64,000 nucleotides of DNA from Escherichia coli O157:H7 (lineage in GTDB: Bacteria; Pseudomonadota; Gammaproteobacteria; Enterobacterales; Enterobacteriaceae). Location: NCBI RefSeq assembly GCF_013167455.1, contig NZ_CP038328.1; one strand, 5' to 3'. Below, piece by piece: positions 6,966 through 7,700 of this stretch. Each line of letters begins with the position of its first letter. The stretch's first letter is position 1. The position numbers were made by a program, and so were the translations under genes. Under the pieces are notes generated by a model, which was not told the DNA's origin, did no database searches, and saw only the letters and a list, made by a program, of their open reading frames with translations.

Positions 6966-7700
6966 TCACCGCTGCTGCTCTCTGGTGGCGGTAATATCCC
7001 GGAGAATATCCCTGTGTTTGTTCAGTTCCCGTAGCGCAGCACAGACTCGCTCCCACTTCTGAACATTACTTTTCGCCCGGCGCAGCTCGCGGTTAGCCAC
7101 ATGCAGCGATGGTAGAATCAGGTCATCTGCTTTCGCTTCAGTGAACGATTGCTGCAACTTCACAATGTCCTCCACCGCTTCTGTTTTAATTTCTTCCTGT
7201 GCAGCCGTTTCCTGGACTGGTAACGCAACACCAGCTGGCTGAGGAAGGGCTTTACCCTCCGTTTCAGCTACGGATGCTGCTTTCGGCTCTGCCGGTAAAT
7301 CAACGCCCGGTATGCAGTAACGAAATTTACCATCCTGATTCACGCGAATCAGACACCCTTTGCTGATTGCCATTGCCAGCGATGAATTCGCCCGGCGGGA
7401 GGTAATTCCGAACATCAATGCCAGTTCATCCGCCGTTTGTGGGCCATGTTGTTCAATCGCCTCTGTCAGCATTTGCGCCGTCACTTTCGGTACCGGTGAC
7501 ACCGGTTCACTTTCACCAGCCTGAGTCAGCCACCATATCGCCCCCTTGTTATCCGCTTCTCCACGGCGTTTCAGTTTCCACAGTTCGTTGACAGCCTCTT
7601 CACGACTAATTCCAAGGCGAGCTGCCACCACATGTGAAGAGGCTCTTTTCAGTGCTTTCAGTGCGTCAGATACGGTTTCCATTAAAATTTCCTCCGACAA
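6966..7700 (-). CDS. Hypothetical protein with two predicted winged-helix segments and a charged coiled-coil tail
   Basis: 244 aa; immediately downstream of the P-like gene. Confidence 0.5.

Follow-up and report, generated by a model that had tools for sequence, protein, structure and literature searches.

A predicted tandem winged-helix protein of the DUF1627/YdaW family encoded directly after the helicase loader gene in a lambdoid prophage of Escherichia coli O157:H7

Introduction

Winged-helix proteins are found in several well-described arrangements. MarR proteins carry one winged helix between N- and C-terminal dimerisation helices, tandem winged-helix scaffolds (ScpB, ESCRT-II, SelB WH2-4 and the AlkZ/YcaQ array) carry two consecutive small winged helices, and Z-alpha domains are marked by Asn173 and Tyr177 on helix 3 and by Trp195 on the wing (ADAR1 numbering). 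The lambda protein Ren is shorter, with 96 aa, one winged helix and a short tail, and in the phage records listed here its gene comes immediately after that of P or of a DnaC-like loader.

The DUF1627/YdaW proteins are among the most widespread uncharacterised early gene products of E. coli lambdoid and Stx-associated prophages. A literature search on DUF1627, PF07789, ydaW and WP_000451012 returned no functional study. Lists of putative transcription factors include YdaW of E. coli K-12 as a MarR-type candidate; in the TIC/TAC overexpression screen of Bobonis et al., ydaW is given as one of the prophage genes that block RcaT, the toxin of retron-Sen2; and a paper on the Pas sRNAs contains a synteny remark that names DUF1627. 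In this report, we describe a member of this family in a stretch of 64,000 nucleotides of E. coli O157:H7 (the window). The gene is carried by a lambdoid prophage whose integrase adjoins potC; by sequence comparison, a stretch 100% identical to the region at 5000-10700 is present in many O157 genomes, and part of the surrounding 5.7-kb region is matched in 4176 of 5426 complete E. coli genomes.

Results

An intact gene of a catalogued family

The original prediction placed a 244-codon open reading frame at 6966..7700; the ORF list contains this frame, but on the minus strand and with a TTG start. The ATG at 7682, 18 nt downstream of the TTG at 7700-7698, is more likely to be the start: GGAGG at 7695-7691 lies upstream of it with an 8-nt spacer, PGAP calls the resulting 238-aa product (WP_000451012.1, 'DUF1627 domain-containing protein') in the 100%-identical O157 genomes, and 35 of the 43 family members in our alignment have a MET(V/I) N-terminus at this position. 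For these reasons we take the gene as 6966-7682, with the following features:

6966..7682, minus strand: DUF1627/YdaW-family coding sequence, 238 aa, from ATG 7682 to stop TGA 6966-6968 (ORF list, PGAP WP_000451012.1)
7683..7703, minus strand: translation-initiation region, with GGAGG 7695-7691, the unused TTG 7700-7698 and a mosaic junction at 7703

The protein matches Pfam PF07789 (DUF1627) with 271.5 bits and an E-value of 2.3e-81, residues 76-230 covering model positions 1-155 of 155, well above the gathering score of 28.1 bits. The match to phrog_630 (E 1e-114) covers the full length (residues 1-237). Homologues form 2290 clusters at 90% identity, and at 50% identity relatives occupy 143 clusters among 1.84 billion representatives. 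In the DUF1627 frame, dN/dS against close homologues is ~0.29-0.36, and none of the five plus-strand ORFs overlapping the gene has a PHROG match; with the minus-strand frame under purifying selection, plus-strand coding at this locus was rejected. Given the Pfam and PHROG E-values, the homologous clusters, the dN/dS ratio and the empty plus strand, the ORF is far above chance and, on this sequence evidence, a real gene. Its profile matches assign it to an already named and catalogued family (DUF1627/YdaW, PHROG 630) that is functionally uncharacterised. Synonymous divergence along 6966-7682 is uneven in comparison with three related loci (L016, L018 and L030), dS being 0.24-0.27 in the first winged helix and the linker and 0 in the last 48 codons, which indicates recombination inside the gene.

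The named relatives are the YdaW proteins of Rac prophages. The intact Rac YdaW of strain 442/2 is 74% identical to the window protein, and the K-12 YdaW is 57% identical over residues 1-139, which include both winged helices; unlike the window protein, K-12 YdaW is truncated and lacks the C-terminal hairpin. Rac ydaW occupies the same position after the loader, and there is otherwise no structural difference.

Two winged helices, an acidic linker and a basic hairpin

We aligned 43 full-length relatives (21-72% identity) and used this alignment for an AlphaFold2 (AF2) model. Four parts could be delimited:

7527..7673, minus strand: winged helix 1 (WH1, residues 4-52; AF2 pLDDT 94-97, family alignment)
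7314..7478, minus strand: winged helix 2 (WH2, residues 69-123; AF2 pLDDT 95-97, profile matches and column counts)
7113..7295, minus strand: variable acidic Pro/Ala-rich linker (residues 130-190; predicted disordered, pLDDT 50-58)
6972..7106, minus strand: basic helical hairpin (residues 193-237; AF2 helices 193-222 and 224-237, pLDDT 92-96, conservation)

The two winged helices first proposed from the sequence were recovered in the model, in which the order H-(E)-H-H-E-E occurs twice, in residues 4-52 and 69-123, with pLDDT 94-97. WH1 stands outside the PF07789 model, and WH2, linker and hairpin then follow; all four parts are kept in the 43-sequence alignment, down to 21% identity. The model and the alignment thus show a predicted architecture of two small winged helices, an acidic disordered tether of ~60 residues and a conserved basic helical hairpin. 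The full-length model has a pTM of 0.40, so that the parts of the protein have no fixed relative placement in it.

In WH1, L34 and W50 are invariant and K13, A14, A20 and R22 nearly so across the 43 sequences, and the charge of the third (recognition) helix reverses between clades at positions 36, 38 and 39. This reversal argues against a conserved base-reading role for the WH1 third helix, and because of it the roles assigned below to the individual winged helices are guesses. In WH2, residue 96 (R96 here) is R or K in 43/43 sequences and position 113 in 42/43, S100 is present in 34/43, and the wing bears W/Y122. Profile matches of WH2 are to the ADAR1 Z domains, AspA, and MarR and ArsR winged helices.

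An acidic, coiled-coil C-terminal half had also been proposed. Both an acidic stretch and helices are present, but they are separate: the acidic part is the disordered linker (residues 131-175, rich in Pro, Ala and Glu, net charge -5, variable in length and sequence among relatives), and the helical part is basic (residues 176-238, net charge +4). The family consensus of the hairpin reads P-x4-I-x2-EIRRTK-x2-L-x2-LEKLR-x-AVREL-x-KH, with hydrophobic residues spaced by 3-4 positions, and R201 is invariant in the alignment.

In the family, the hairpin is preceded by an I-P-x-F(T) motif (I in 30/43, P in 37/43), the first two residues of which correspond to residues 177-178 (window 7146-7151). 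The O157 allele alone has Q-Q where DUF1627/YdaW proteins have this conserved I-P. The I-P-x-F(T) element may be a short linear motif for docking, lost in the O157 allele.

The hairpin as a probable self-association element

To model the hairpin as a pair, two copies of residues 168-238 were joined by a 30-residue Gly/Ser linker and run through AF2 with a duplicated family alignment. The resulting pTM was 0.53, with ~92 of 172 residues ordered. This value is near the maximum expected for one rigid body (independent hairpins would give about half), which suggests that the pair forms a four-helix assembly. The helix pLDDT fell to 81-89 and two of the five models were poor, and the strength of the self-association reading is limited to a single pTM value from a linked-copy model. 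We consider the hairpin a probable self-association element on this modelling. A PDB sequence-profile search gave no solved relative for the hairpin region, and a Foldseek search with the tandem-copy model gave no fold analogue at E < 1.

Comparison with known winged-helix systems

In Foldseek searches against the PDB, the tandem winged helices matched DIP2311, ScpB, ESCRT-II, SelB, UFL1/DDRGK1 and AlkX/YcaQ (E 7e-5 to 5e-3), and single winged helices matched proteins of the MarR, ArsR, FeoC and PKZ Z-alpha types. A viral library returned uncharacterised phage tandem winged-helix proteins and Z-alpha proteins of herpes- and poxviruses. In addition, the AlkZ-like Pfam model gave a weak match to the window protein (E 1e-3) and to a homologue, P0167 (E 3.6e-7).

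The top match of a PDB profile search was ADAR1 Z-alpha/Z-beta (E 1.6e-7, with both Z domains matched), followed by the archaeal centromere-binding protein AspA and ZBP1 (E 4e-3). Foldseek likewise matches the window protein to PKZ Z-alpha, CyHV ORF112 and E3L, and the wing Trp is kept in DUF1627 (W50 invariant, W/Y122). We therefore mapped the remaining signature residues, by HMMER alignment for WH2 and by eye for WH1. The Asn173 equivalent is N99 in WH2 (Asn in only 3/43 sequences) and V31 in WH1 (L in 30); the Tyr177 equivalent is A103 in WH2 (A 16, R 10, T 4, no Tyr) and W35 in WH1 (R 25, W 8). Despite the ADAR1 match, a Z-alpha identity was rejected, as neither equivalent is conserved in either winged helix: with the Asn/Tyr signature absent and the wing Trp alone kept, the DUF1627 winged helices are not Z-alpha domains and at most resemble Z-beta, the type that does not bind Z-form nucleic acid.

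A mosaic unit directly after the loader gene

The gene had been placed immediately downstream of a P-like gene, and the annotation of its surroundings agrees, with a gap of 33 nt to the P-like gene at 7716-8177. The neighbouring genes are:

7716..8177, minus strand: lambda-P-like helicase loader (Phage_lambda_P E 1.6e-16, phrog_109, PGAP)
8170..9207, minus strand: O-like initiator with a DnaT-like domain (Pfam DnaT E 4.5e-17, phrog_1408; iteron-like repeats)
6652..6969, minus strand: downstream 105-aa HTH protein (PGAP WP_000017339.1; phrog_323; Sigma70_r4_2 E 5e-4, under the Pfam cut-off)

The P-like ORF extends to 8378, and its PGAP product has 153 aa. On the other side, the GTG start of the 105-aa HTH gene overlaps the DUF1627 stop (GTGA).

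This arrangement is general. We examined 80 IMG/VR loci (65-100% identity), and in all 79 that include upstream sequence a helicase loader lies directly upstream, DnaC-like (YdaV) in 45 and P-like in 34; the gap between loader and DUF1627 gene is 20-22 nt in all DnaC-like loci but one and 32-34 nt in P-like loci. GenBank phages likewise have the loader followed by DUF1627, and among the distant members the gene ahead of P0187 (31% identity) is IstB/DnaC-like and the one ahead of P0226 is P-like; one further distant member (29% identity) follows a RecE-like exonuclease gene, not a loader. The gene on the 3' side varies among the IMG/VR loci, with the 105-aa HTH protein here and LygF or small ORFs elsewhere.

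Between the window and the loci that carry a DnaC-like loader, homology begins exactly at position 7703, 21 nt ahead of the ATG, and from there downstream to ~4400 (~3.3 kb) these loci are 99.9% identical to the window; the replication module upstream of 7703 is unrelated in these phages. One further locus has only the DUF1627 gene itself in common with the window. Because of the junction at 7703 and the co-inheritance with downstream genes, the DUF1627 gene is independent of any particular O/P set: it is a mosaic unit that heads a nin-like accessory block and is indifferent to the type of loader or initiator.

The only sigma-70-like promoter within 6000-10700 is TTGACA-18-TAATAT at 10065-10036 on the minus strand, upstream of a cro-like gene. 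As this PR-like promoter stands alone in that region, the DUF1627 gene most likely shares a transcript with the cro-like, ydaT-like, O-like and P-like genes.

In two loci (L095 and L096, with the protein P0147), ydaV is deleted and the N-terminus of YdaU (DUF1376) is fused in frame to the DUF1627 hairpin. This YdaU::DUF1627 chimera has 313 aa and is found on 4 contigs, in some Rac-like prophages. In view of the Rac-like prophage context and the deletion of ydaV, the fusion was rejected as a functional link to the initiator.

Relation to Ren and the Nin proteins

The original prediction compared the position of the gene to that of lambda ren/nin functions, and in this respect it stands, lambda ren lying directly after P and the window gene directly after the P-like loader. 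Homology to a characterised Nin protein was sought and not found: no Nin family is among the Pfam, PHROG or NCBIfam matches, and homology to NinB-NinI was rejected on that basis.

The similarity to Ren itself is faint. BLASTP of the window protein against lambda Ren is not significant (E 1.0), phrog_142 ('Ren-like exclusion protein') is matched at E 1.4e-4 over residues 71-120 with no single stretch passing, and hhalign of the two family alignments pairs WH2 with the whole Ren winged helix and nothing beyond it (E 1.1e-3, probability 20%). Unlike the window protein, Ren has no second winged helix, acidic linker or hairpin. With these values, and a similarity confined to the generic winged-helix fold, we judge a specific homology to Ren to be unestablished; as the similarity is no better than that to unrelated winged helices such as ADAR1 (E 1.6e-7), we treat Ren as a positional and fold analogue, a remote homology being possible from sequence. 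The 60 of 172 Ren-carrying phage records and the 24 DUF1627-carrying records have no record in common.

In phages Dewey (H92) and mEpX1 (H93), Ren-like matches cover Ren residues 1-58 only and adjoin DnaC-like loader genes; they are annotated as 'MarR family transcription regulator' or 'putative Ren protein', and cluster P0355 represents this Ren-like form of 57 aa. In general, the slot after the loader seems to be occupied by winged-helix proteins, whose sizes vary.

Other elements in the window

The O-like gene (8170-9207) contains two clusters of iteron-like direct repeats, at 8750-8799 and 9020-9080; the repeats are based on (T/G)CGTGAC with a spacing of ~10 nt and include six 19-nt copies. 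By analogy with lambda, these clusters are probably the replication origin of the prophage. In the segment 10036-10110, two direct repeats of 20 nt, TAGGCTTAGCCTAATGCAAT and TAGGTATTGCCTAATGCGAT, lie 51 nt apart and are overlapped by the promoter at 10065-10036. Located between the racR-like repressor and cro/ydaS-like genes, they are probably the immunity operators together with PR. A terminator-like hairpin on the minus strand at 7725-7741 (GCCGGAAGGCGGC followed by TGGTTTTGTTTGA) is placed at the extreme 3' end of the P-like gene and precedes the DUF1627 start by 40 nt; it may be a chance occurrence, as the scan gave 8 such sites against 3.8 expected.

Several RNA elements were also observed. 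A match to the Rfam STnc100 sRNA (101.6 bits) is adjoined by a pseudogene of the TerB family with an internal stop (307-473 minus, 645-1007). A 2026 preprint describes the PasA/PasC sRNAs of pathogenic E. coli near RusA, TerB and DUF1627 genes, and the STnc100 match beside the TerB pseudogene may be an sRNA of the PasA/PasC type. A hok/sok type I toxin-antitoxin system lies in the nin-like region at 3947-4271 on the minus strand (Rfam sok 114 bits, PGAP hokD). The SraB sRNA and the rne 5' UTR, at 49421-49589 and 51439-51775, are host chromosomal RNA elements; the far end of the window is therefore core E. coli chromosome.

Discussion

Our best guess, and a tentative one, is that the DUF1627 protein is a self-associating winged-helix adaptor with an accessory, Ren-like role in host interaction or counter-exclusion. 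It would be a delayed-early protein of the lambdoid prophage, expressed from the rightward, PR-like operon, in which its gene comes straight after those for replication as the first of the nin-like accessory block. The predicted hairpin would mediate self-association, the wing of WH2 and the conserved basic and Ser residues of this domain would make contact with a nucleic-acid backbone, and WH1 would be mainly a protein-contact surface. A role of the Ren type would be non-essential and could travel with any helicase-loader module, and the protein would not be a dedicated partner of one O/P pair.

The retron screen is a lead towards a counter-defence role, from a single overexpression screen with a truncated paralogue: the K-12 YdaW used there keeps both winged helices and lacks the hairpin. 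The block of RcaT by ydaW could also come about indirectly, for instance if less toxin were expressed. Going further, the slot after the loader might be a dedicated counter-defence locus, filled interchangeably by Ren, the 57-aa Ren-like winged helix and DUF1627, in which the winged-helix pair would neutralise abortive-infection toxins of the RcaT/RexAB type and the hairpin would multimerise; we regard this extension as unlikely. PADLOC matched 0 families at E up to 0.1 in a library of defence, not anti-defence, proteins, and membership in a known defence system was rejected.

Among the alternatives to a Ren-like adaptor, the one that survives best, and which we hold to be somewhat doubtful, is that the protein regulates transcription in a sequence-specific way, as a MarR-like winged-helix dimer that controls phage or host genes in lytic development; a transcription modulator was also one of the functions first proposed. 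The listing of K-12 YdaW as a putative MarR-type factor points this way, as do the DNA-binding-like residue pattern of WH2, the dimerisation element that the hairpin model makes likely, and weak matches to phrog_633 ('transcriptional regulator', E 1.6e-4), phrog_1687 (MarR, E 8e-4) and MarR_2 (E 0.028). The likeness to MarR proteins is one of winged-helix fold, with the weak MarR_2 and TrmB matches falling on WH2; the matches to the MarR, TrmB and HTH Pfam models and to the NCBIfam HTH models are all under curated cut-offs, and MarR membership was rejected (MarR_2 15 bits against a cut-off of 27). In contrast to MarR, in which dimerisation helices flank one winged helix, the window protein has two winged helices and a remote hairpin, and the ~60 disordered residues between the winged helices and the putative dimeriser are unlike MarR, ArsR or IclR. 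Moreover, a regulator of this kind is disfavoured by the local sequence: no inverted repeats or operator-like sites were found near the DUF1627 gene and no repeats adjoin it, and nearby DNA targets were rejected, the repeats of the region belonging to the origin in the O-like gene and to the immunity operators.

A modulator of replication whose target would be the DnaB helicase of the host, the primosome or the loader, one of the functions first proposed for this protein, is less probable still, and we consider it unlikely. It would fit the adjacency to a loader in 79/79 loci and in distant members and the probable co-transcription with O and P. The mosaic structure weakens it: the same gene, even in 100% identical form, stands behind a P-like or a DnaC-like loader, and has thus been exchanged between unrelated AAA+ DnaC-like and lambda P-like types. 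The initiators are unrelated as well (the O-like protein with a DnaT domain in the window, YdaU/DUF1376 in Rac, HTH_36 at the P0187 locus), and the junction falls at DUF1627's own ribosome-binding site, 21 nt before the ATG, so that the gene is co-inherited with the nin-like genes and not with O/P. In addition, one distant member follows RecE, and sequence-profile and Foldseek comparisons gave no similarity to known DnaB-binding proteins.

We give even less weight to a tandem winged-helix scaffold that would contact proteins only and not nucleic acid, in the manner of the ScpB/MukE 'kite' or of ESCRT-II, and would sequester a host complex. Foldseek matches to ScpB (3w6j, E 1.4e-4; 2z99, E 1.9e-4), ESCRT-II and UFL1/DDRGK1 speak for it, since all of these use tandem winged helices for protein contacts, and the window protein shares with such scaffolds its two consecutive small winged helices. 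The TM-scores are 0.2-0.34 with large rmsd (0.21-0.34 for the ScpB kite, a generic likeness only, kleisin binding being a ScpB feature), and the inter-domain orientation is undefined (pTM 0.40). The matches reflect a generic tandem arrangement, with DNA- and RNA-binding winged-helix proteins scoring alike; the scaffolds lack the acidic linker and basic hairpin and share no sequence family with the window protein, and ScpB is absent from its Pfam matches at E up to 1.

That the gene is a decaying, functionless prophage remnant, as the truncated K-12 ydaW, the YdaU::YdaW deletion fusion and the loss of I-P from I-P-x-F in the window allele (Q177, Q178) might suggest, is very improbable against an intact ORF, a dN/dS of ~0.3-0.36, an architecture conserved to ~25% identity and the presence of the gene in inducible phages.

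The structural reading of two winged helices in a prophage gene was thus largely right, for a family already annotated in databases, and the present result is the re-identification of an annotated domain-of-unknown-function protein with a modestly refined domain map. If the Ren-like counter-exclusion role that we favour is true, it would help to explain the tolerance of co-resident EHEC prophages to one another's defence systems and would place Ren in a mechanistic context.
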